A stretch of DNA of 64,000 bases from a virus: positions 6,689-70,688 of IMG/VR virus record IMGVR_UViG_3300044614_001845. The stretch is one strand, 5' to 3'. The position numbers and the translations under genes are program-made. The first letter of the stretch is position 1. Each line of letters opens with the position of its first letter. This document shows positions 6,132-49,574 of this stretch, piece by piece. The notes beneath the pieces are model-generated. The model saw only the letters and a program-made list of their open reading frames with translations, ran no database searches and was not told where the DNA came from.

Positions 6132-6593
6132 TCAATCAAGATAGCGGGAAGCTTTGCCACAGAAAACAAGATCCATGACACCGTGAAAATCAGTGGGAGC
6201 AACACTGTAATCATAATCACCATTGCCCTTAGTGATGAAATAAAACCTTGCAGTTTCACGAATAATTTTGTTTTGAACGCTGGCGAGACGATCATCTTTC
6301 ATCAAGCGCAGCATGTGAATCTCGACCGATGAGAAATCATACTCAGATTCTTCTTGTTTGCGCTTTTCATAAAGCTTGCAATACATGGGAAGAAACAAAC
6401 TGCCCAGCTCGCTAATCATCCACAAGCGTGTATCGCCTTCACGCATTTTATTCAAAATCTTTCGATCATGAATAGCAACGTCAGTCCAGTTGTGTCTGAC
6501 AACATCTTCTGCTTCAAAACACATCCACTCGTGAAGCGTTTTATTTCGCAGAATACGTTTAACAGGCTCTTGCCTGCTAATAATTTGTGTCAT
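6132..6593 (-). CDS. hypothetical protein
   Basis: ATG at 6593 downstream of P7. Confidence 0.7.
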   Translation of the reverse strand: MTQIISRQEPVKRILRNKTLHEWMCFEAEDVVRHNWTDVAIHDRKILNKMREGDTRLWMISELGSLFLPMYCKLYEKRKQEESEYDFSSVEIHMLRLMKDDRLASVQNKIIRETARFYFITKGNGDYDYSVAPTDFHGVMDLVFCGKASRYLD

Positions 6594-6629
6594 TTGCACT
6601 GTACGCAAAGTTGAATGAAGAACGATGCC

Positions 6630-7927: not shown

Positions 7928-8177
7928 AGAAAAGCGGCTCGTGCATGAATCTGTACGCGAGTTAATCGAGTCGCTTTCTAAATCAGCGAGCCTTGCAAGT
8001 AATCTCGTTGCGTTCTTAAACGAAAACTTTCTGGCAATAAGCAAAGACTATAGAAAAGAACTTCTTGCAAGCGTCACGGAAATTGATGCTTCTTTATGGC
8101 ACTTGAGCCTGCAGGTTTACAACATGAATAAAGCGAAAGAAAGAATCATTAGCAAGCCTGAGCAAAAACGCTGTTGA
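7905..8177 (+). CDS. hypothetical helical protein
   Basis: 90-aa ORF. Confidence 0.6.
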   Translation: MQFPASDEEKRLVHESVRELIESLSKSASLASNLVAFLNENFLAISKDYRKELLASVTEIDASLWHLSLQVYNMNKAKERIISKPEQKRC

Positions 8178-8191
8178 TACGCTGACTTGTA

Positions 8192-8220
8192 TTGACAGGA
8201 TGCCCCTAAGACTTTACACT
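8192..8220 (+). promoter_or_regulatory. sigma70-type promoter
   Basis: TTGACA-N17-TACACT upstream of 8248; imperfect inverted repeat overlaps the -10. Confidence 0.65.
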
Positions 8221-8247
8221 TAAGGGGTTCTATGCAAAAACCTTGCT

Positions 8248-8490
8248 ATGACAAGGCGTGAGAGGCTCAAGTTCAGGCCCGGCGAGACAGTCTTCGCTCG
8301 CTGGCACGGCACCAGCGAGTTTGAGATCGTTGAAGAAGTAGCCTGTAATTCTTTTTTGCCGCATTACAAATGTAAGACATGGGGCGGCAGAAAGTATGAC
8401 TACTGGGTTTTTCCTCAAATTCATCTTTCCCGCACTGCGATTGAAACCCTGATTGGGGAAGCAAATCGCAAGCAACTTTCTCTCATCTGA
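8248..8490 (+). CDS. hypothetical protein (possible SH3/Tudor-like fold)
   Basis: FRPGETVFARW pattern. Confidence 0.6.
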   Translation: MTRRERLKFRPGETVFARWHGTSEFEIVEEVACNSFLPHYKCKTWGGRKYDYWVFPQIHLSRTAIETLIGEANRKQLSLI

Positions 8491-16576: not shown

Positions 16577-17338
16577 ATGGCGCATCCTGGATCTGGCTTT
16601 TACATAAAAGATGACAAGCAATATGCTTCAGTGAGCACTGTCCTGGGGCGCACGTCTGAATTATTCAATCCCAACAAAATGAAGGGCTTGGATATTTGGC
16701 GGCAAATGGAGCCAAACTGGCAAGAGATCATGGAGAGAGCCCAGCGTCGGGGGACAATCATTCACGCCGAAGCCGAATTATTTTTTACCGGCGATGCAGA
16801 TAAACATAAATTGGATCACGCCACTATGGATGAGATCATGGAATACAACATCCATGAGTACATCTCATACTTATCGCCTGTTTTGGAACTGATTAAGTCT
16901 CAAAACTTCAAGAACGAAGTCAGCGCTCCATCATTCCTCATGGAAGAAGAGCTGTTCTGTGATCTTGGTTATGCAGGTACTGCTGACCTTCGCTTGAACT
17001 GGGACGGAAAGTACACAATTTGGGACTGGAAAACGGTGCGCTCGTACAAAGAAGAGGGCGTCAAGAAAAAACCCAAATCCATGTCGCATTACAAAGAAGC
17101 TGAGGTTCAGATTGCTGCATATGCACTTGCTCACAATCTTGCTGTAAAGAAAGGTGAGCTTGACAATCAGATAACTCAAGGTGTAATCTGTGTTTGCTAT
17201 GACTGGCGTGAACCACACATTCACGTTCTAGACAAGCAAGAGCTGAAAGCAAAGGCGCAAGAGTTCATCGAACGTCTTAACGCTTACTGCTCTCTTGAGA
17301 ACACCTCACTCCCTAAGGCGATTAACTTCGCAATCTGA
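16577..17338 (+). CDS. PD-(D/E)XK exonuclease (RecB/Cas4-like)
   Basis: SVSTVLG, RGTIIH, YAGTAD, DWKT, QIAAYA motifs. Confidence 0.9.
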   Translation: MAHPGSGFYIKDDKQYASVSTVLGRTSELFNPNKMKGLDIWRQMEPNWQEIMERAQRRGTIIHAEAELFFTGDADKHKLDHATMDEIMEYNIHEYISYLSPVLELIKSQNFKNEVSAPSFLMEEELFCDLGYAGTADLRLNWDGKYTIWDWKTVRSYKEEGVKKKPKSMSHYKEAEVQIAAYALAHNLAVKKGELDNQITQGVICVCYDWREPHIHVLDKQELKAKAQEFIERLNAYCSLENTSLPKAINFAI

Positions 17339-17340
17339 AC

Positions 17341-17691
17341 ATGCTTTCGATCACTGCCAGCGGCTACATCACAGGCGAACCAAAAGTCGAAGACACCGAG
17401 TACGGCAAACGTGCCACTATCACCATCCGTGCTAAAACCAGCAACGGCAAACAAACCCATTACATCAACGCCGTTTTCTACGGAAAGCGAATTGAGACTG
17501 TTTGCAAATATATGGCAGATGGGCGCCAGGTATCAATTATCGGGTCCGTAAGGCAAATGAGTGGCAAAAAGAAAAATGATGGCACAGAGTATTCCTCTAT
17601 TTACATGGATGCCAGTGATTTCAGCCTGCCAGAGCTGAACGGTGGAGATCCTGATCGCCGCAAACCTATTGATGAGGAGGTTGCGTTCTGA
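17341..17691 (+). CDS. ssb: single-stranded DNA-binding protein
   Basis: OB-fold pattern, acidic tail DEEVAF. Confidence 0.85.
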   Translation: MLSITASGYITGEPKVEDTEYGKRATITIRAKTSNGKQTHYINAVFYGKRIETVCKYMADGRQVSIIGSVRQMSGKKKNDGTEYSSIYMDASDFSLPELNGGDPDRRKPIDEEVAF

Positions 17692-17706
17692 TTCACTTGG
17701 CATGAT

Positions 17707-17890
17707 GGCTGGGTTTGATGGTTTTTTCCCAGCCTTTTACCTCCCTTGCGTTGACACTGCTACTGCTCGGGCCAAGTGGTAGAACAACGGTAATGCGCTG
17801 TAAGAGTTGGGTCTTGTCTAAGAGCAAGGCGGTACCAGCCAGTCATGGCTTCTGGGCCTTGTCAAGGTAAAATGTCAGTAAGTCCAAGAC
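17707..17890 (+). ncRNA. candidate structured non-coding RNA / riboregulator
   Basis: multiple nested and mutually exclusive stems in an intergenic region closed by a terminator (see findings). Confidence 0.5.
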
Positions 17891-17892
17891 TT

Positions 17893-17920
17893 GAAAGCTC
17901 CCGAAAGGGGGCTTTCTTGT
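17893..17920 (+). terminator. intrinsic terminator
   Basis: GAAAGCTCCC-GAAA-GGGGGCTTTC-TTGT. Confidence 0.8.
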
Positions 17921-17946
17921 ATCATGCAGTCGTCAGTGTTTTTGTT

Positions 17947-18501
17947 ATGGCACGCCTGATCGGACTTTACAGTCCCGCCCCTCAATCAGGAAAAACATTT
18001 ACAGCGAATGTCCTAACTCAGTACGGCTATCGCTCAATGAGCTTTGCCGAGCCAATCAAGCGAATGGCAGCTGAGTTCATCATGTCTTTCGGCTACACAA
18101 AAGACCAAGCGCTTCGGTTTGTGTGGGCTGACAAGGAAAAAGAAATCGCAGAGATCAAAACAACAGCACGTTATATTCTTCAAACACTTGGAACGGAGTG
18201 GGGGCGCAAGTGCATATCGAATGAGCTGTGGACTGAGTGCATGATGTATCGAATTGCGTCTTGCTTGAGAGACAAAGATTGCAGTATCGTGATTGACGAT
18301 GTTCGATTTGTTAACGAAGCCGAAACAATCAAAGGAATGGGCGGCGAGATGTGGATGATTATTCGCCCGTCAGCAACAAATTCAACAAAGCACGAATCAG
18401 AAGGCGGACTTGATAAGTGGGAGCACTTTGATCATGTCATCATTAACGATGGAACCATCGCTGACATGCGTAAAAAGGTTGACGAGTGCGCTAAATGCTA
18501 A
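17947..18501 (+). CDS. deoxynucleoside monophosphate kinase
   Basis: P-loop PQSGKT, SFAEPIK, R.ILQ.LGTEWGR, DDVRF.NE, HESE; start moved to ATG 17947. Confidence 0.9.
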   Translation: MARLIGLYSPAPQSGKTFTANVLTQYGYRSMSFAEPIKRMAAEFIMSFGYTKDQALRFVWADKEKEIAEIKTTARYILQTLGTEWGRKCISNELWTECMMYRIASCLRDKDCSIVIDDVRFVNEAETIKGMGGEMWMIIRPSATNSTKHESEGGLDKWEHFDHVIINDGTIADMRKKVDECAKC

Positions 18502-19232
18502 AAGACAGAAGTGACGAATTTTATGGGGCGCGACTTGTAGCTGACGCTCGATTGCACCTAGGCGCCATCGTCAACAACGAAAGCTCAGAAGCTTTCTTCG
18601 TTACAATGTGCAAAATAATCAAGAATGAATTTTATCTTGGCTACAAGACTTTCACGGGTAAAGAGATAAAGCTGTCTGGGATGAAGGATTTCATCTTTAA
18701 TTCAAATTATGGCCTGGGCATAAAACGAGAAACGATGCCAACTTTCTTGGCGAATTGCGCAAAAGCGGCAGTCAAAGACAAGACTCAGGCGCAGTGTGCA
18801 AAAAGATTTGTTAAGTGGCTGGGCGAACAGCACGATAAATACGATCTTCCGCACGAGTATCTTGAATATAGAAGAATTGACGCTTACATCAATGCAAAAT
18901 ACAAGGCAAACAAGCAGGAGAAATGGAGAAGAATAAACCTGCTCACTAGGATTTACAATCAGTACCCAGGGTATTTACAGGAAATAGGCGCAGAAAGAAA
19001 GTACAAGGATATTACAGATTGCGCACAAGACCTTGGCTTTTGGGAAAAGAAAGAACGACTCAAGCCACTTTCCCTCTACAAGCATCCAACTATTTTGCAA
19101 GTAGAGGATCTAGCGAAAGCGCTCAGCAAACGCCTTGACAGAAAGAAGCGTCGTGTTTTAATCGCTAAGCTAATTGAAATCTACAAACAGGAGCCACCTG
19201 TAAGTGACGGCGAATTTGGTGACGACACTTGA
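18495..19232 (+). CDS. hypothetical basic protein
   Basis: 245-aa ORF. Confidence 0.7.
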   Translation: MLKDRSDEFYGARLVADARLHLGAIVNNESSEAFFVTMCKIIKNEFYLGYKTFTGKEIKLSGMKDFIFNSNYGLGIKRETMPTFLANCAKAAVKDKTQAQCAKRFVKWLGEQHDKYDLPHEYLEYRRIDAYINAKYKANKQEKWRRINLLTRIYNQYPGYLQEIGAERKYKDITDCAQDLGFWEKKERLKPLSLYKHPTILQVEDLAKALSKRLDRKKRRVLIAKLIEIYKQEPPVSDGEFGDDT

Positions 19233-22669: not shown

Positions 22670-22870
22670 ATGATTATGACTGAGATTACCGAGCCTTACC
22701 TTGAGGCGCCATGTAAAGAAAATGAGTGGAAGTGGCGCGTTTACGGAATCGGGATGGTGTGGGATCATGCGCAAGAGTGGCAGGCTCGATGGAAGCTCCA
22801 CTACTTACAGGTTTCACGAGGCACAACCACCGACAATGGCCCGCGACGCGACACAGGCTTACCTCAATGA
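22670..22870 (+). CDS. small Trp-rich hypothetical protein
   Basis: WRVYGIGMVWDHAQEWQA. Confidence 0.55.
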   Translation: MIMTEITEPYLEAPCKENEWKWRVYGIGMVWDHAQEWQARWKLHYLQVSRGTTTDNGPRRDTGLPQ

Positions 22871-23723
22871 GATAGGGCGATACCCCCTCCTGACGAAAAC
22901 TCAAGAGGTAATTCTTGGTACGCAGGTGCAGGCTTGGATGAACATAAAAGACAAAGATGAAAATCAATACACAGAAGAAGAGAAGCGCATAGCAAGAATT
23001 GGCAGGCGAGCAAGAGATAAATTCATCAAATGCAATCTTCGTTTAGTTGTAAATGTTGCACGCAAGTATGTCCCAAGATGCAACAGTCTTGACTTGATGG
23101 ATTTAGTGCAGGAAGGAAATGTTGGACTTGCAAGAGCTGTAGAAAAGTTTGACCCAACACGCGGGTATGCGATGAGCACATACGCATACTGGTGGATCAG
23201 GCAGGCGATACAAAGATCAATGCAATTCAGCGATGCAACAATTCGCCTACCAATTGGAATTCACGAATCAGTCATCAAGATCACAAAAACAACAGAGCGA
23301 CTGACAAAAGAGCTTGGGCGCGAGCCAACACTTGAAGAAATATCTATCGAGCTGGAAATTGCCATACCAGAGATCAAAGCAATACTTGATGCGCCAAGAG
23401 CCTCAACGAGCCTGGACAAACAGGCGAACGAATCTGATGGGAGTAGTCCGCTGATAGAACTAATCTCAGACTCCAAGCACTCCAACACGATAGAAGATGC
23501 AGAGCAAAGAATTGCAATTGAGGATGCGTATGCAGCGATAGAAAGTTATCTAGACGAAACCACGCAGTATGTGATCTTTGAACGCATGAAAGATCCGCCG
23601 ACGCCCTGGAAAGAGATCTGCGAGATTACAAAGATGACACGCGGAAGATTGCAACTAATGGAAAAGACTGGTCTACAACGCTGCGCACTCTTGCTGCGCA
23701 TCAAAAATAGATTCGATCTTTAA
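22836..23723 (+). CDS. RNA polymerase sigma70-family factor (group 2-like, lacks region 1.1)
   Basis: YLNEIGRYPLLT, NLRLVV, DLVQEG.VGL.RAVEKFDPTRGY..STYAYWWIRQ; start moved to ATG 22836. Confidence 0.92.
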   Translation: MARDATQAYLNEIGRYPLLTKTQEVILGTQVQAWMNIKDKDENQYTEEEKRIARIGRRARDKFIKCNLRLVVNVARKYVPRCNSLDLMDLVQEGNVGLARAVEKFDPTRGYAMSTYAYWWIRQAIQRSMQFSDATIRLPIGIHESVIKITKTTERLTKELGREPTLEEISIELEIAIPEIKAILDAPRASTSLDKQANESDGSSPLIELISDSKHSNTIEDAEQRIAIEDAYAAIESYLDETTQYVIFERMKDPPTPWKEICEITKMTRGRLQLMEKTGLQRCALLLRIKNRFDL

Positions 23724-41834: not shown

Positions 41835-44800
41835 TCAGATACCTATTTGACGGCGAGCTTTGACGCTGTTCTTGAGTGAGCTGAGTGTGAGGGCGCGTCC
41901 ACGCTCCGCAGCTTCGGCAAGTCCACGCTGGTACTGATCAACAGTAACATACTCGACATTGTTTATCATCTGAGATTCATACTTAATATCAAGCGGCTTG
42001 GTGATCGCAGTTACGTTGCTTTCCATGACACGCTCCATGTTCTTTTCCTTATTCATGCTTGACACAGAGCTGAGCACTTCTCGTGTCTGACTGATTGCGC
42101 TGCTCGTCTCCCTGCTATCACGCGCTTGCATGAGAGCGGAGATCGTCTCCTTCGTGGAAATAGCCGACTGAGAACCAGAAGACTTGCCAACTGCATTGCG
42201 TGAATCGCCAAAAGCAGAAGCCTCGGCTTTCTTAGAAGAATCAGGCGAGGAGATACGATCTGTGATTTTCTCAATGAACTCACGAGAGTTGGTAATCGCA
42301 CCAGCCTCGCCCACCTGTTGCATCTGATCTGGCTCGCCGCCACTGATTTCAGAAGCAAGAACGCCACGCGCAGCGGAAATGGCATCACCGTATGCAAGCT
42401 GCTGCTGAGAACCAGCGGCAAATTGATCAGTACCATCAGCGCTGCCAGTCTGATTATTTGTAATTTCACGAATCGTATTGCTATCTTTAGTTGCAAGCAG
42501 CTTGTAAAGCTCTCGTGTTTCAGGAGAGGCAGAAGCTGCAGCAGCAGCAGCTTTTGCATCATTCTCCTGAGTGATGCGCTTGATCATTTCAACGGCGCCC
42601 CTGGAATCGGAGATCGCCATTGCAGTAGCCCGCGACATCTTGCCTTGGGCTTCACCTGACTTGAGGCCCATAGCGCCATAGCCATCAGATGCGCTACCAG
42701 ACAGCTCCAGCCCTGTCGTTCCATCGCCCTGAGCCATTGCATCAGAAGCCTCATCAAGGGCATCCCTGGCTTCAGAGATGGCGTCAGAGAAGCCTGTTGC
42801 GTCAACGCCAAGACGACCATCGGCGCCACGGCTAAGGGGGATGATCGCTTCTGGGCCAGCCTCACCCATGAGGCCAGTCTTGCGAATTCCACCATCGGCA
42901 AACCTGAAGAGAGTCGGCGAGGAGACAATGGAATTCGTAAACATTCCACCGCTACCGAAAGAGGCAATTCCGCCGTTGAAATAAGCACCTTTCGCGGCAA
43001 GACCGCCGAGCATATCTGTAATATTCCCTGCCCCCGTATCAAGACCGGTATTAGTAGCCTGTCCCATCGAGCCAGGCAGCGATGTAGCGCCAGCGCTTCC
43101 AATAGAAGCAAAAAGACCAAGCGCTTTAATTGCTGAACCCCAAACAAACATCAGTATTTGATCTGCAACAATTTTTGCCGCCATTTCAGCAAAAGCATCT
43201 GCAATTCCTTGCATCATTCTTGATAAAGCATCTTTAACCTGTACACCAGTATTTGAAAGCTCATTCATCTTAAGCTTGGCTTGATTGATTTGATCTGTGT
43301 ATCTCTTGTACTCATCTGTGCCTTCTTCTGTCTTGGCGCGAAGTTTTTCAAACTGAGAAATTTCGCGTTGCAGATCAAAGCGCTCCTGCATGGTCCCTAG
43401 GCCAGTTGCACCAAGAAACACGTCTTGAATGCCTTGCTCAAGGGCACCACGCACACTTTCTGCGGTTGACCGTATCTGCTGCGCAGCCTCAAGTTTTCTT
43501 GCTAACTCGTCAGCAGCAGCAGCCTCTCTCAGCAATGCTTGGCCATGTTGATCGGAAAGATCAATTCCACGCACCTGAGCCTCTGCTTGAAGTTTCTGAA
43601 CTTCAGTTAGGCGGCCAAAAACATTCATCTGAGCCTCAAGCTCAAGCTTCAGCTCGTTGTTACCTTGGGTAAATTCAATTAATTTATCAGACTTAAATGT
43701 TTCGTCTTGCGCTTGGCGAATTTTATTGATAATTGCAGGTCTTCCGTTTTCTAGATTAAGTAAGGCTTGGAGCCTTTTCACTAGCTCATCATTTTTGCCG
43801 ATCTGGCTCTGTATTTGTTGATTAATCGCATCAACAAGAACCTGCTCAGCCGCTAAATCCTTAGACCTGACACCACCGCCTTGTCGGTACTGCTCAAACA
43901 GCTTGCTAGAAGAAATAATCTGCTTGTCAAGCTGATCAGTAATTGAGCTAAGAGCAGTTTCGCTATCAATTTGCGATATAAGACCCGCAATATCTTGCAA
44001 TGCAACTTTTAAGTTATTGCCAGCCTGCAGGGCTTCTGAGATGCCACGAGTCGAAACGCTGGAGCCACCCACAGCGCCGACACCTTTAAGTTTCCCTGGG
44101 GCAGAAATAGCTTTAATTTCCCCCTCGCCTTTTTTGATTGCATCAAGCTGCGCCCTGTAAACATCAATTGCATTTTGAATTCCTTGTGCTGCATCAGTTT
44201 CGCCCAAGGCTTTCGACTGCTTAAGTGCAACCTCAAATCCTTTAATTTTTGACTCAAAGCTAATTCGCTCCTGGGAAAGCTTGAACTGTGCAATTTTCTT
44301 TTCAAGGGTGAAGCGAGTGCTATCGTACTCTTCATTTCTTTGACGCACTTGCTCGTTAATATCGCTAACTTTTTGCGCTGTATCTAGGTTTAGCTTGCTA
44401 ACTTGATCTGCGATTTGAATTTTGTATTTTTCTGTATCTACAACGCTATTCTGAATATCAAGCTCAAGCTTGGCTCTTTGTGTAGCTGAGTCATTTTGAA
44501 TCTGAGCAACTGTTTCAACGGCGTTGAGCAGCTGATCCGTGACCTGACCCGCCGTGGTGTCAGCAAAAAGACCACGAAATTCTTGATTTGCTTGTTTGAT
44601 TTTTGCAAGTTCAAGCTCTGCAGATCTTGCTCTTAGATCAATTTCAGTCTCCGCATTTTCGCGCCTTTGTTGAAGAATCCTGCTTTCAACATCTTGGCGT
44701 ATTTGTGAAATACTTTCTTCGTAGGAGCGAACAAGATCCGCTCGCTGTTTGTCAAGATCCCGTTGCTCACGTGCGGCCTGCCTGACTTGATCCTTTAATG

Positions 44801-47800
44801 ATTTGCCAATATCAGTAGTTTCAAGCTTTTTTGTTAAAATAGCAATTTCTTGTTCTGTTTTCTGTGTTGCATCAGCTGCGGGCTTGAGCTTGACAGGAAC
44901 CGAGAAGTCCTTGAATTCATCTACAAGTTGAGCCCTAAGGTTATTCGCTTCTTCGTCAGAAAGAAAGTTACCGATGCCCAAATCACGTAAAATGCTTGCG
45001 CCGATGCCGCCACGACGCATCTCAATATCAATGCGTCTTTGCTCAAATTCTTGTTTTTTTGTACCCGATAGACCGGCTCCAATATCAGCTACTGCCGCCC
45101 TAGAGCGAGACTCCTGATTTGCCAGATTAAGAACTTTTGATACCCACTCCAGCAAGCCCGCCATTGGCCCAGCAAGTGCCGTTTGAAGCTGAAGACTAAA
45201 TTCAGCCCAAGCACGATTCAATCTGTCAGACGAACCTGCTAGCTGCTGCAGGGACTGAACGCCGGTTCTGCCAATCTTGCTAATAATCTCTTGTTGAGAA
45301 ATTACAGCCGCAGAAGCGACCAAACCAGCCTCTTGAAGCTTGCCTGCAAATTTTTCTGTTTGCGTTGAGCTAAATAATGCTCGTTCTTTTACTTTGTCAA
45401 ATGTTGCAGTTGTATCAGTTAAAGCTGCACCCAGCTCCGTTGCTCCTTGAACCGCAGTGTCAAAAGCAGTGCCAAGCGCCGTGCCAACCAAAGACAAACC
45501 AAAGCCAAGCCCGCCACCGGCAAAACCGCCAGCTGCACCACCAAGGCCGCCAAGCACAGACGCGCCCAAGCCCTGCCCAAACAGCAACGGGAAGGCGCCA
45601 CCAACTAGGCCCTCACTGACTGCACGACCGCCTCTAGAACCAAAGCGGCGGGTCAGAAAATCAGCATCAGGAGCACGGCGCTCAAGCTGACGATCAAGAT
45701 TGGCGGCAGTTTCACGAAGCTGCTTTTCAAGGCGATCAAAACCCTCAGATGTTGGATCAAGAATTGCCCTGAATTCCTTGAGAACCGCGCTGAGTGCCTC
45801 AAGCTCCTTAATAGATGCAGTCGCTGGCTTGGCCAGTTCCTTGAGTCCAAGCACAGCCTCTGGACCTTGGGCTACAGCTTCCTCAAAGCGACGACCAAAA
45901 TCTCCTGCTCCACCACCCGCTCCAGCGCGACCTCCACCGCCAAAACCACCAGGCGGCAACATGCCCCCAATGCTGTCAAATAGAGACGGAATAGCGTTAC
46001 GAACTCGATCTATTGCATTTTCAAACTTGTCAGCAATTGTAAAACCAAGAGCCTCAAGCGAATTCAGCAATGAGTCGGAGACGCGCTGAGATACATTCGC
46101 AACAGCAGAAGATGCACCAAGCCTTTTTTCTCCAGTAATAACATCCGTCACACTAGAAAGACCGGCGCCTCTGCCGGACTCTGTTAGTTTTCTTGCAAGT
46201 TTTGCTCCTCCAAGCTGAGCGCTTGATTTAACAATATTAGAAATAGCGCTAAATTGAGAATCTTCGCCTTCCCAGAAATTATTAACAGCGTCCCGATACT
46301 TCTTGATTGACTCAGATACGGCCCTGCTTGCATCGCTTCTTGTGCCAAGCCCACCAAGAGCAGAAATCGGCCCATCAACAGGGAACTGCTGAGCGCCACC
46401 CATCTGATAGCGCTGGAACGGAAAAGCTGAACCAGGCGCACCAATGGCAGCCTGCGGACGAATTGAGAACAATCCAGTTCCACCAAGGCCAACAGGGCCT
46501 TGCGAAAGCGGCGCAAACAAAGAAGAAGAGATTGCGCCTTGAGAACGAATAACAGAAGAAAGAGGACCAGTGAACGCACCAGTTTTAGAAACAGCGCGGA
46601 TAGCAGCATCCGTAATCGCCTGTTCAAGTCCGCCACCTGGAGCTGCAGCATTTCCACGCAACAACCTTCTTTCGTCAAGCGGCAACAATCTTGTCTCTGG
46701 AAGAATTTTTCCAGCCTCAAATGCCTTCCTTTGCATTGCTTGAGGAAGAACATTGCTAGATAAAATTTCTGGACCGGCAAGCTGCGCTAGCTGACGGAAC
46801 AATGACGGCTTTGCTGATGTTCTTCCAGCAAAGTTGGCAAGCTTTTCAATTAAATCTTGACCACCAGCAACAGAACCAGAAAGCGGCGCCTTTAGCACAT
46901 TTCCAAGTTTGGGCGCGAATAAATCTTCAACAGCAGCGCGAACAGCAGCTTTTCCAGCTCTTGCTGTATTGACCGCCGTATCAATAACATTCTCCATTGC
47001 CCTAATGGCAACACGAGAAGGGCTTTGAATTTCAAGTCCCTTGTTGAGGCCGTCTTCAACAGCTTCTCCGAGCGCTTCTCCAGCTCCAACAGCTTTTGGA
47101 ATTCCGGCACGCGCCTCGGAAACAAGAGCGCTAACTACATTGGCGCCAGCTCCTTTGCCAGGCTTGCCTGTATTGAACTCACGAACGATCTTGTCAATTC
47201 CCTGCGCAGGAGAAACACCACCAAGGAACTTTTCGCGTGCTGCGCGAGCGTTTCCAAGACTTTCAATTGCTTGCTCTAAGCCTGAGCCAGCTTCGCCGGA
47301 GCGTCGCCCAGAACCACCTTGACCAGCAAGTATTTGCTTCTGAAGAGATACATATCTTCCAGCAAGCCCAACTTGCTCAGTCAGAGCATCTAAATTATTC
47401 TGGGTAATTACATAATCTTCTCTCTTGGCATTATTTAATGCTTGCTGAAGGCTATTTAACTCAGAGGTTACGTCAACTCCCTTGCGCTGAAGATTTATCA
47501 GTCCCTGCTCAATGACTGCGCCAGAAGCAAGGGTGTAACGAAGACGACGAGGAGCATCAAGTCCAAGGGCTTCACCGCCTCTGATTGTTGTGCCACGAAT
47601 CGACTTTGGTTGCTGAGCTTCACTAATGAGCTTTTCTAGTCTTAAACGCTTAGCGGCTATCTCGTTTACGTCAAGTAAAGTATTAAGGGTCTTTTTAGTA
47701 TTTTGATAATCATCAGAACCAGCGTTAGCAATTGCATCCCTAACAGCAGAAAGCTCACGAGCAACATCAAGTCCTTCTTTTTGCGCAGAAAGAAGCTGCC

Positions 47801-49574
47801 TTTCAAGAATCTGAGAAGATAGAATAGCGCTTTCAACTCTTTTTTTGCCTTCAACCGGCGAAATCTGACCAGTTTTAATTATTTCTGGACGAATCTTGCC
47901 TTCCCGACTTTTTCTTTCTCGGTCTACTTCGGAGGCAATTGTTCTTGCAACAGTGAAACGCTTTTCATCAATAGCAAGACGCGCTTCGTCAAGATCAAGA
48001 AGTAGCTTTTTCTTCTGTAACTCATTGATTAAGCCTTTTTCGGCGGCTATTTGAATTCTCGTCTCGGCGCCAGACACCCTTTCTAGGGCCGAACTAAATC
48101 TTTCTCCAGCAAGGCGATCTTGTTTTTCTGTAATCTGTCTTGCTTTTTCTGCGGCAGCACGAGCCCTTACCTCTGCTCCGCCTCCAAGAACGGTCGCAAA
48201 TGGACGCTCGCCCGCTGCGCCACCCTTGCTCAATTCTTTGTTTCTATCTTTAATTTCACGAATCTGCCTCTTCAGTTCAACTGTTTGTTTTTTTGCCGCT
48301 TCAATTGAGCCAACACTTGTGTCTTGGTAGATTTTATCAATTTTATTTCTTAGCTCAAGCGCTTCATTTTGATCTAATGTTATTTTGGTTAGCTCGTACT
48401 CAAGATCAATGAGCTTGTCTACCTGCTGTTCTTGTTTTTTGCCAAGATTTTCTTGATATTTTGCACGCTTAGCAGCAGATTGGATACTGAACTGCGGCAG
48501 CAATTCTGATTTTCCCTGAGGAGCGGCAATCCCATCAGCAATAGCTTTTGCAAGACCGGAAGACTGTCCACGCAGGCCAGCAAATCTTTGCTCAAGCTGC
48601 TGCAGTTCGCCGTTTACATCATTGATGACTCCTTCAAGAAGATTCCACTCAGAGCTATCAAATGGAACAAGTGACTGAAGACTTGACGCCTGCGAAATGT
48701 AATCAGAAAGAGCAGCTCTTGATTTTGTGATTGCGCCATATGACTCAACAAAGGTTCCAATCAGTGACCTTGCGCCAGCCAAGCTTTCTTGACTGCCAAT
48801 TCTTTGCGCGGTCCTAGATCGAGCATTTTGCTCCTGCGGAAGCGCAAGTCCCTCCGCAAGCGCTTTTAACTGCTGCTGGCGTCCCTCAAAAATTTTCTGA
48901 TTGGCAACCTGTGAGGCAAGTACAAAGCGATTGAATTGCTTTGATGCGATCTCGGAGTTACTTGCAACAAGAGAAAGCGCCTCCGCCTGGCTTCGCAGTT
49001 GAGCAATACTTCCACTGCCTTGACTTGCTGCTACTTTTCCTGTTACGGGTGTCCTTGTTTGATACCTACCAAGCTTTAGATATTCGTCAGAAAGATCAGT
49101 AAGGGCTACCGTAAGTCTTTGAATTTGCTTGGTTTCGTCTAAATACCTCTGAGCGCCAGGTAATTTACTTTCTTGCCTTTGGAGTCTCTCTTCTAGTTGC
49201 CCTCTTTTTTTCTTTGCCTCAGTTAGCTTACCCTCTAGCTGCAATGACTTAAGCAATGCGTCAATATGTTTTTGACTGCCAACCGTTAGCTGCGATATTG
49301 CTTTATTAGCAGATATGAAATCTTTTTCAAGATTTTTGACAACTCTGTCATAGCTATTGTAATCTTTCTGTGCTTCGCGTATAGATTTTCTTACTTCTGA
49401 AAGCCCATCTGTTGCTGCATCAAGAGCAATATTTGCTTTGTTTATATCTAACTTAATCGGCGATGAGTTAATGCCATTTACAATTGATTCAAGTCGGCTT
49501 ACATTTTGAATTAGCCTTTCAAGCTTGGAACCGCCTTTTACTTCAAGATTAACAGAGGCGCTAATTCCAGCCAC
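41835..49574 (-). CDS. tape measure protein
   Basis: 2579-aa helical protein; Gly-rich hydrophobic segment; C-terminal GLMGEAGPEAIIPL. Confidence 0.92.
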   Translation of the reverse strand: MAGISASVNLEVKGGSKLERLIQNVSRLESIVNGINSSPIKLDINKANIALDAATDGLSEVRKSIREAQKDYNSYDRVVKNLEKDFISANKAISQLTVGSQKHIDALLKSLQLEGKLTEAKKKRGQLEERLQRQESKLPGAQRYLDETKQIQRLTVALTDLSDEYLKLGRYQTRTPVTGKVAASQGSGSIAQLRSQAEALSLVASNSEIASKQFNRFVLASQVANQKIFEGRQQQLKALAEGLALPQEQNARSRTAQRIGSQESLAGARSLIGTFVESYGAITKSRAALSDYISQASSLQSLVPFDSSEWNLLEGVINDVNGELQQLEQRFAGLRGQSSGLAKAIADGIAAPQGKSELLPQFSIQSAAKRAKYQENLGKKQEQQVDKLIDLEYELTKITLDQNEALELRNKIDKIYQDTSVGSIEAAKKQTVELKRQIREIKDRNKELSKGGAAGERPFATVLGGGAEVRARAAAEKARQITEKQDRLAGERFSSALERVSGAETRIQIAAEKGLINELQKKKLLLDLDEARLAIDEKRFTVARTIASEVDRERKSREGKIRPEIIKTGQISPVEGKKRVESAILSSQILERQLLSAQKEGLDVARELSAVRDAIANAGSDDYQNTKKTLNTLLDVNEIAAKRLRLEKLISEAQQPKSIRGTTIRGGEALGLDAPRRLRYTLASGAVIEQGLINLQRKGVDVTSELNSLQQALNNAKREDYVITQNNLDALTEQVGLAGRYVSLQKQILAGQGGSGRRSGEAGSGLEQAIESLGNARAAREKFLGGVSPAQGIDKIVREFNTGKPGKGAGANVVSALVSEARAGIPKAVGAGEALGEAVEDGLNKGLEIQSPSRVAIRAMENVIDTAVNTARAGKAAVRAAVEDLFAPKLGNVLKAPLSGSVAGGQDLIEKLANFAGRTSAKPSLFRQLAQLAGPEILSSNVLPQAMQRKAFEAGKILPETRLLPLDERRLLRGNAAAPGGGLEQAITDAAIRAVSKTGAFTGPLSSVIRSQGAISSSLFAPLSQGPVGLGGTGLFSIRPQAAIGAPGSAFPFQRYQMGGAQQFPVDGPISALGGLGTRSDASRAVSESIKKYRDAVNNFWEGEDSQFSAISNIVKSSAQLGGAKLARKLTESGRGAGLSSVTDVITGEKRLGASSAVANVSQRVSDSLLNSLEALGFTIADKFENAIDRVRNAIPSLFDSIGGMLPPGGFGGGGRAGAGGGAGDFGRRFEEAVAQGPEAVLGLKELAKPATASIKELEALSAVLKEFRAILDPTSEGFDRLEKQLRETAANLDRQLERRAPDADFLTRRFGSRGGRAVSEGLVGGAFPLLFGQGLGASVLGGLGGAAGGFAGGGLGFGLSLVGTALGTAFDTAVQGATELGAALTDTTATFDKVKERALFSSTQTEKFAGKLQEAGLVASAAVISQQEIISKIGRTGVQSLQQLAGSSDRLNRAWAEFSLQLQTALAGPMAGLLEWVSKVLNLANQESRSRAAVADIGAGLSGTKKQEFEQRRIDIEMRRGGIGASILRDLGIGNFLSDEEANNLRAQLVDEFKDFSVPVKLKPAADATQKTEQEIAILTKKLETTDIGKSLKDQVRQAAREQRDLDKQRADLVRSYEESISQIRQDVESRILQQRRENAETEIDLRARSAELELAKIKQANQEFRGLFADTTAGQVTDQLLNAVETVAQIQNDSATQRAKLELDIQNSVVDTEKYKIQIADQVSKLNLDTAQKVSDINEQVRQRNEEYDSTRFTLEKKIAQFKLSQERISFESKIKGFEVALKQSKALGETDAAQGIQNAIDVYRAQLDAIKKGEGEIKAISAPGKLKGVGAVGGSSVSTRGISEALQAGNNLKVALQDIAGLISQIDSETALSSITDQLDKQIISSSKLFEQYRQGGGVRSKDLAAEQVLVDAINQQIQSQIGKNDELVKRLQALLNLENGRPAIINKIRQAQDETFKSDKLIEFTQGNNELKLELEAQMNVFGRLTEVQKLQAEAQVRGIDLSDQHGQALLREAAAADELARKLEAAQQIRSTAESVRGALEQGIQDVFLGATGLGTMQERFDLQREISQFEKLRAKTEEGTDEYKRYTDQINQAKLKMNELSNTGVQVKDALSRMMQGIADAFAEMAAKIVADQILMFVWGSAIKALGLFASIGSAGATSLPGSMGQATNTGLDTGAGNITDMLGGLAAKGAYFNGGIASFGSGGMFTNSIVSSPTLFRFADGGIRKTGLMGEAGPEAIIPLSRGADGRLGVDATGFSDAISEARDALDEASDAMAQGDGTTGLELSGSASDGYGAMGLKSGEAQGKMSRATAMAISDSRGAVEMIKRITQENDAKAAAAAASASPETRELYKLLATKDSNTIREITNNQTGSADGTDQFAAGSQQQLAYGDAISAARGVLASEISGGEPDQMQQVGEAGAITNSREFIEKITDRISSPDSSKKAEASAFGDSRNAVGKSSGSQSAISTKETISALMQARDSRETSSAISQTREVLSSVSSMNKEKNMERVMESNVTAITKPLDIKYESQMINNVEYVTVDQYQRGLAEAAERGRALTLSSLKNSVKARRQIGI

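Follow-up and report, generated by a model that had tools for sequence, protein, structure and literature searches.

The gap between the ssb and dNMP kinase genes of the window (the whole 64,000-nt stretch of viral DNA analysed here) contains a structured RNA whose fold, strand, family and genomic context are established by comparison with relatives. Its core, the 193 nt at 17696-17888 on the plus strand, forms 11 helices, with helix P1 closing the 5' and 3' ends, and is recovered by cmsearch with covariance model R1 at 146.9 bits (E 5e-32, model positions 1-200). The family, which comprises 103 distinct cores on viral and metagenome contigs, lies behind ssDNA-binding-protein genes of aquatic phages and is apparently undescribed. 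An initial annotation of this DNA had proposed a new phage non-coding RNA in the gap, and the finding of a covarying plus-strand RNA that matches no Rfam family, tRNA or tmRNA bears this out.

The window spans bases 6689-70688 of the virus record, which is 70,688 bp long and has direct terminal repeats, and most of the DNA runs that contain it carry the label of a lake water metagenome. The RNA lies in a plus-strand replication-recombination module with the gene order DnaD-like initiator, DnaB helicase, Erf, PD-(D/E)XK exonuclease (16577-17338), ssb (17341-17691, 116 aa), the 255-nt gap, dNMP kinase (17947-18501, 184 aa), RusA, MazG-like pyrophosphohydrolase, dCTP deaminase and a sigma-70-type factor. 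The exonuclease gene directly precedes ssb, whose stop codon ends 4 nt before the RNA. Matches of the two flanking proteins to PF00436 (E 2.8e-8; phrog_44) and PF21448 (E 1.8e-18; phrog_139), respectively, confirm the genes between which the region had been placed, and the sequence strings quoted in the initial annotation are all present at their positions. Further along the window, the sigma-70-type factor (22701-23723, plus strand, 340 aa) contains regions 1.2, 2 and 3 and has thousands of homologues; the best 120 of these are all metagenomic and phage-like, and gave no indication of the host. Protein searches with the terminase and the nuclease likewise did not indicate a host, with identities to isolates of at most 40% and 29%, respectively. 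On the minus strand, a 2579-aa open reading frame (41835-49574), unusually long for a 70-kb phage, matches tape-measure PHROGs in its C-terminal part.

Protein searches in viral contigs yielded 8 loci through the kinase and 14 through the SSB. In every relative that spans the gap, the spacer measures about 255-260 nt; it is alignable throughout and shows compensatory changes. RNAalifold, applied to 12 of these relatives, predicted a fold with pairing between the 5' and 3' ends of the element. The same fold, with further compensatory changes, is retained in the more distant locus L009 (57% kinase identity). A pattern describing the loop of hairpin P6 (L6) matched 78 viral-contig stretches, most of which share other motifs, and a two-motif pattern matched 70 metagenome stretches, some of them marine. 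When R1 was run over the 77 sources of the viral-contig set, there were 66 real matches (64 full length and 2 cut by contig ends), while the 70 metagenome stretches gave 66 full-length matches, 2 cut by contig ends, 1 match to the loop only and 1 miss. Candidates L069, L091, L099, L102, L103, L108, L112, L115, L118, L123 and L127 had been judged chance occurrences of the pattern, and R1 matched only their loop or nothing at all.

The evidence for a structured RNA comes from comparison and not from the folding of single sequences, which was unremarkable relative to shuffled controls (z = -1.8 on the plus strand and -2.8 on the minus strand). We aligned 28 relatives of the window's broad type with MAFFT and drew a structure of 54 pairs in 11 helices by hand. 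In this alignment, which is free of any bias from R1, 94.4% of cells pair, compared to 27–49% when the 3' partners are slid, and two-sided changes occur in 26 pairs, compared to 6–9. The alignment of 56 distinct members of the viral set was fitted to R1, which favours the model, and showed 93.4% of cells paired (39–47% slid), two-sided compensatory changes in 46 of the 54 pairs (15–24 slid) and a covariation score of 0.543 (at most 0.115 slid), with none of 500 shuffles reaching the observed values. In the metagenome set, whose 62 distinct rows were fitted to R1 with the same bias, 92.2% of cells are paired, 45 of the 54 pairs show two-sided changes and the score is 0.602. The 15 strongest mutual-information pairs, ranked separately, all lie inside the model. 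Covariation among homologs, which the initial annotation had named as a check, is thus present over most of the structure.

Paired cells (4917) include 512 G-U or U-G and 118 A-C or C-A combinations. This large excess of G-U over A-C indicates that the plus-strand RNA is the functional form, in agreement with the earlier remark that the G-U pairs fit the plus strand. A coding role for the gap was rejected: all three plus-strand frames carry stops in 79 of 96 members, reading frames are not kept among relatives, and the open reading frames at 17715-17870 (plus) and 17693-17827 (minus) have no Pfam match. We also rejected the idea that the gap is better conserved than its genes, with nucleotide identities of 64–70% in the core versus 63–76% in the flanking genes.

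The conserved fold has P1 as its closing helix, a multi-helix junction bounded by P3 and P4, and arms formed by P6, P7 and P8-P9. P1 is made up of P1a (17696-17700 with 17884-17888), in which CUUGG/CCAAG changes to GGGG/CCCC or GCGG/CCGC in relatives, and P1b (17703-17706 with 17874-17877), with two-sided changes at all four pairs; in the internal loop of P1, C17701 and A17702 stand opposite a conserved GUAAGU (17878-17883). P2 is a hairpin of 7 bp with a 14-nt loop (17707-17734), two-sided changes at 7 of 7 pairs and 80% of cells paired. The initial annotation had read its stem, GGCUGGG/CCCAGCC, together with the U tract that follows, as terminator-like. The hairpin itself covaries, but P2 in relatives lacks the U tract and is therefore not the ssb terminator; the tract is limited to the window's closest relatives, where it forms the 5' strand of P3. 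P3 (17735-17742 with 17865-17872) has two-sided changes at 7 of 7 modelled pairs and 97.6% of cells paired. Its pairing, UUUUACC/GGUAAAA, had been taken for part of a long-range alternative and proves to belong to the conserved fold, while the UUGACA/UGUCAA pairing proposed alongside it found no support.

Within the junction, P4 pairs CCC (17743-17745) with GGG (17809-17811) and has two-sided changes at 4 of 4 model pairs, for example CCUC/GAGG in L055. P5 (about 17748-17751 with 17795-17798; 79–82% of cells paired) encloses P6, and is the least well aligned helix, with an uncertain exact register in the window sequence. The P6 stem (17761-17766 with 17776-17781) covaries around the near-invariant 9-nt loop L6 (17767-17775), which reads UCGGGCCAA in the window. 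This hairpin had been noticed as CUACUGC/GUGGUAG, but the long stem that was thought to enclose it pairs in 63% of cells compared to up to 60% when slid (12 relatives). P7 is a small hairpin (17812-17815 with 17820-17823; UCUU/AAGA, loop GUCU) with two-sided changes at 3 of 4 pairs. P8 (17824-17830 with 17856-17862; two-sided changes at 7 of 7 pairs, 99% of cells paired) is followed by the bulge J8/9 (GGUA, 17831-17834), which lies between P8 and P9a (17835-17837 with 17853-17855) and around which GG and CC are invariant; the arm ends in hairpin P9b (17838-17849).

The pairings CAAGGC/GCCUUG in P8, and CCAG/CUGG and GCCA/UGGC in P9, were all proposed initially and covary, but the stem suggested to close this domain, GUCUUG/CAAGAC, is not conserved. 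It is present in only 14 of 94 distinct members, competes with the covarying P1a, which the initial annotation had missed, and is invariant in the 12 closest relatives and therefore uninformative among them. A subgroup-specific alternative that uses this stem is possible. As a whole, comparison produced one conserved fold and no evidence for the mutually exclusive folds originally envisaged, since neither the long stem around P6 nor the GUCUUG/CAAGAC stem is conserved.

The closing terminator described earlier is present at 17894-17920 on the plus strand, where we read from the sequence a 9-bp stem (17894-17915), a GAAA loop and a U-rich tail. It starts 6 nt past the RNA core and is kept in the window's subgroup. 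A simple terminator scan did not report it because of pairing between the A and U tracts. Right behind the terminator tail, a perfect TATAAT occurs in relatives L007, L012 and L014, and the window reads TATCAT there (17918-17927). Going by its sequence, this element could be the -10 box of a promoter that restarts transcription for the kinase operon; no -35 box was found at normal spacing to it, and the promoter scan reports none.

Several members depart from the typical form. Short variants of 156-157 nt (L272:1309-1464 and L304:3366-3522) are without P2 and P3, so the minimal core consists of P1 and P4-P9. Members rich in G+C (65–71%), namely L074:3494-3672 (minus strand), L125:3809-3987, L083:1764-1950 and L107:12568-12758, are low-scoring and full length with R1; the pattern for the GUAAG motif at the 3' end was not found in these four. 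In L074 and L125 the RNA lies behind an Erf gene and not behind ssb. Locus L104 carries an extra element of about 85 nt (8175-8262) between its SSB-like gene and a full RNA, with the same end motifs (GGGCA at the 5' end and GUAAGUCCCAA at the 3' end) and no inner helices. Judged by these motifs, it may be a degenerate or minimal copy, and if so, the P1 loop motif would be suggested as a module of its own. In L105, a pair of neighbouring tRNA genes (6460-6618) is found about 3.4 kb beyond the RNA on its downstream side.

The near-invariant bases of L6 and J8/9, together with the internal loop of P1, are candidates for a functional pocket. Most members were fetched with patterns containing L6, and the metagenome set also through GUAAGNCC, so that the invariance of both is partly by construction. 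An independent test of L6 was based on 66 loci fetched through the nuclease protein, of which the 53 not close to the window were given to R1. The RNA was present in 15 of the 53, and 8 of those 15 are on contigs new to the set. Only 7 independent members show L6 and so test its invariance; in these, the loop stays YCGGRCYRN, with CGGRC kept, while the stem covaries. Among 96 members, the L6 purine and the first base of J8/9 are G:U in 64, A:C in 12, A:A in 10, G:C in 3, A:U in 2 and other combinations in 5, and in L335 both partners of the neighbouring pair are altered (C to U in L6 and G to A in J8/9). These patterns tentatively suggest that L6 and J8/9 form a 3-bp pseudoknot, in the window between G17771-C17773 and G17831-U17833; L335 is the one compensatory case, and the A:A class (10 of 96) does not pair.

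Across the family, the constant neighbour of the RNA is the upstream gene, which protein matches place in several families of ssDNA-binding proteins. Of 94 distinct cores, 91 could be checked for an upstream open frame of 60 codons or more, and in 79 of these such a frame stops 2-9 nt short of P1; 70 of the 80 upstream frames found stop either 3 nt (44) or 4 nt (26) before it. Upstream proteins match the SSB families PF00436 and phrog_44, the "single strand DNA binding protein" families phrog_1607 and phrog_1192, and Erf, while 11 of 24 upstream representatives match nothing known. More than half of the upstream frames found (53 of 80) end in [VMLI][AP]F, which we take to be reminiscent of the Pro-Phe tip of SSB tails. 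The RNA is always oriented as its flanking genes.

This arrangement raises the possibility of a 3'-UTR element that acts in cis for the upstream ssDNA-binding-protein mRNA, either by guarding it from 3' decay or Rho, or by coupling its own folding to ribosomes that terminate 3-4 nt upstream and would have to open P1. The narrow spacing across unrelated upstream proteins, the association with SSB, Erf and phrog_1607 genes, and, in the window, the terminator directly behind the RNA are consistent with such a role. On the other hand, a plain hairpin would be enough for protection, and eleven helices with invariant loops suggest more than that; tight spacing may merely reflect the compaction of phage genomes; and the one RNA library available has a contig on the RNA and none on ssb. 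Taking both sides together, we think it rather unlikely that the RNA is an element of this kind.

A more speculative proposal, which we consider doubtful, sees in the RNA a dedicated partner for the ssDNA-binding and recombination modules of phages that would be produced together with SSB, in cis and in a fixed register to its stop codon. It could be a decoy or regulator that masks or times the phage SSB, a protein that has been reported, in two 2026 preprints, as a trigger of reverse-transcriptase-based host defences. Alternatively, it could work as a device in which every ribosome that terminates on ssb resets the fold. Either version, if true, would be a new class of RNA-based phage function.

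Downstream of the RNA, the next gene varies and may be a dNMP kinase (in the window's type only), a PD-(D/E)XK nuclease, KilA-N or a small open reading frame of no known function. Clustering of neighbour proteins within 5 kb in 93 loci showed that the commonest family occurs at 46 loci with a mean length of 261 aa and agrees in position and length with the nuclease gene at 16577-17338, which lies before ssb in the window's type and behind the RNA in another type. After it come a 245-aa protein without a known family (42 loci), the kinase family (38 loci) and a cluster of SSBs (34 loci). In the window, the 245-aa protein is encoded after the kinase (18495-19232, plus strand) and has no Pfam or PHROG match; its relatives lie near the RNA in 42 of 93 loci, 3 of which belong to another RNA type. 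In the 75 nt behind the RNA, 57 of 94 members have a terminator-like hairpin with a run of U and 37 lack one, and in the L087/L128/L251 group the next start codon comes 5-8 nt after P1.

These observations bear on the suggestion that the RNA is a riboswitch or other cis sensor, in which folding of an aptamer would set terminator read-through or access to the next start codon, and so time the genes behind ssb. Its architecture is typical of aptamers, with a junction closed by P1, invariant junction and loop bases, and variable peripheral stems, of which P2 and P3 are dispensable, and the varied 3' sequences, whether terminator or nearby start codon, resemble expression platforms. However, the downstream genes are unrelated to each other and it is the upstream gene that stays constant, which argues against a dNMP-kinase riboswitch in particular; what precedes the element is a stop codon and not a promoter; and in the window P1 ends (17888) before the terminator stem begins (17894-17915), with no overlap and no conserved antiterminator found. 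The competing stems drawn in the initial annotation fail comparison in that they do not covary, and with a varying downstream gene and terminator-like hairpins in only part of the family, its riboswitch-like attenuator for nucleotide genes finds no support in the form given. A cis-acting sensor in general we consider to be rather unlikely.

Expression evidence comes from the single metatranscriptome (X20) among the runs holding the window stretch, the DNA runs X2 and X5 covering the whole stretch. X20 contains one 162-nt contig that is identical to 17723-17884, at a depth of 10.4, nothing on ssb or the first 400 nt of the kinase gene, and a weak, diverged contig at 18350-18547. This hints that the RNA core outlives its mRNA, as seen in one run, from contigs and not reads, with ends that are not mappable and from a type of library that DNA can contaminate. 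The presence of the core alone in an RNA library, together with the one-strand excess of G-U pairs, makes it extremely unlikely that the element acts as an ssDNA structure such as a priming or replication signal. That idea, which includes the primosome assembly site of the initial annotation, draws on the location among replication and recombination genes, and it also fits poorly with a complex junction containing invariant loops that is always oriented as the flanking genes.

The same contig is unbroken over 17723-17884, which speaks against the RNA being a new ribozyme that would cleave or process itself and in this way separate ssb from the following gene on the polycistronic transcript. 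The size of the RNA, its invariant core bases, its intergenic place in a phage operon and the 3' end without a defining terminator in 37 of 94 members would be in keeping with a ribozyme; no Rfam ribozyme family matches, and we regard this explanation as very unlikely.

The reading that we prefer, with slightly less than even confidence, is that of a stable non-coding RNA formed from the 3' end of the ssb transcript, which would use the L6-J8/9 pocket and the GUAAG loop to act on a partner that many hosts have in common. The spacer is too short to accommodate a separate promoter, because the RNA begins 4 nt after the ssb stop, and a promoter scan of 17200-18100 found none on the plus strand. 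We infer that the RNA would be transcribed as the 3' end of an early replication-recombination transcript ending with ssb, and would survive as a stable non-coding domain of about 200-230 nt. Its function would be exerted through the invariant pocket, made up of L6 (17767-17775), probably pinned to J8/9 (17831-17833) by the 3-bp pseudoknot, and the GUAAG internal loop of P1, on a protein, nucleic acid or small molecule that is conserved across many hosts. Certain features count against a stable free RNA. The members without a terminator-like hairpin, and those in which a start codon follows P1 within a few nucleotides, fit cis-regulation at least equally well. The narrow spacing between stop codon and P1 hints at coupling to translation termination, which a stable RNA leaves unexplained, and the core is no better conserved than the flanking genes.

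Searches for a known counterpart support the novelty of the family. Motifs from surveys of the Weinberg type are normally included in Rfam. Rfam 15 (4227 models) gave no matches to the whole 64-kb window at gathering score, in line with the check named in the initial annotation, that a match to a described family would mean that the RNA was not new. Relaxed Rfam searches of 17600-18000 (E up to 10) and of 7 member loci (E up to 5) returned chance-level matches only, none of them recurring, and 12 diverse member loci yielded only two tRNAs, both located elsewhere in L105. ARAGORN detected no tRNA or tmRNA genes in the window. The RNA was not found by blastn in 50,697 phage records, with the region from the window, two further members and the L6 hairpin as queries, and the only matches were chance ones in Gordonia phage coding sequence. 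Among the matches listed for the L6 pattern in prokaryote genomes (at least 120), none has GUAAGNCC downstream and all look like chance, and the two-motif pattern was not found in samples comprising 4 named-locus genomes, 401 genomes of one order and 401 of one class. No description of the RNA was found in the literature searched, which included the 2010 and 2017 Weinberg papers and two 2026 preprints; a motif confined to a supplement could escape such a search.

With more than 100 distinct members among phage sequences from lakes and the sea, the family closes a gap in RNA family libraries, where the region is unannotated, and it could reveal how the replication-recombination module is controlled or protected by phages. 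The 11-helix model and the fixed address behind unrelated ssDNA-binding-protein genes make the RNA a ready target for biochemistry.

Time and again, large and strongly covarying RNAs with an invariant pocket have proved to be ribozymes, riboswitches or the cores of RNA-protein machines. Like riboswitch aptamers that work with an intrinsic terminator, the phage RNA is built around a multi-helix junction that P1 closes, with loop and junction bases that are near-invariant and peripheral stems that vary, and a terminator or start codon comes right behind it. Unlike riboswitches, it follows a stop codon and does not lie in a 5' UTR, its downstream genes share no function, P1 and terminator do not overlap, no conserved antiterminator is evident, and Rfam has no match. 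A second parallel is found in the T-box, whose antiterminator bulge pairs with the tRNA acceptor end, and in RNase P, a loop of which binds the same end. The two-G bulge of J8/9 similarly appears to pair with an R-C-C followed by A in L6, and the base beside the GG tracks R. In the phage RNA, however, both partners belong to one molecule, there is no stem I or specifier, and the location is behind ssb, whereas the T-box precedes tRNA synthetase genes; the Rfam T-box model did not match 17600-18000 at E up to 10. With small RNAs derived from 3' UTRs, and with phage RNAs cut from longer transcripts, the family shares the lack of room for a promoter of its own, the use of the upstream mRNA's terminator and the hint of outliving the mRNA. 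It differs from 3'-UTR-derived small RNAs in being far larger and more structured, with a putative invariant tertiary pocket in place of their single-stranded seed.

Two described RNA elements come closer in genomic setting or in complexity. STAXI, according to its description (PMC2864571), is a short pseudoknot repeated two or three times, often near ssDNA-binding-protein genes in mobile DNA. It thus resembles the phage RNA as a structured element near such genes, but the latter is a single, non-repetitive junction of 190 nt and has no Rfam match. GOLLD and ROOL are presented in PMC5737381 as large phage-associated RNAs with no known role. Like the family described here, they are complex, strongly covarying RNAs carried by phages; they exceed it in length several times over, are located near tRNA genes and are represented by Rfam models, whereas the phage RNA of this study matches no such model and is tied to ssb.
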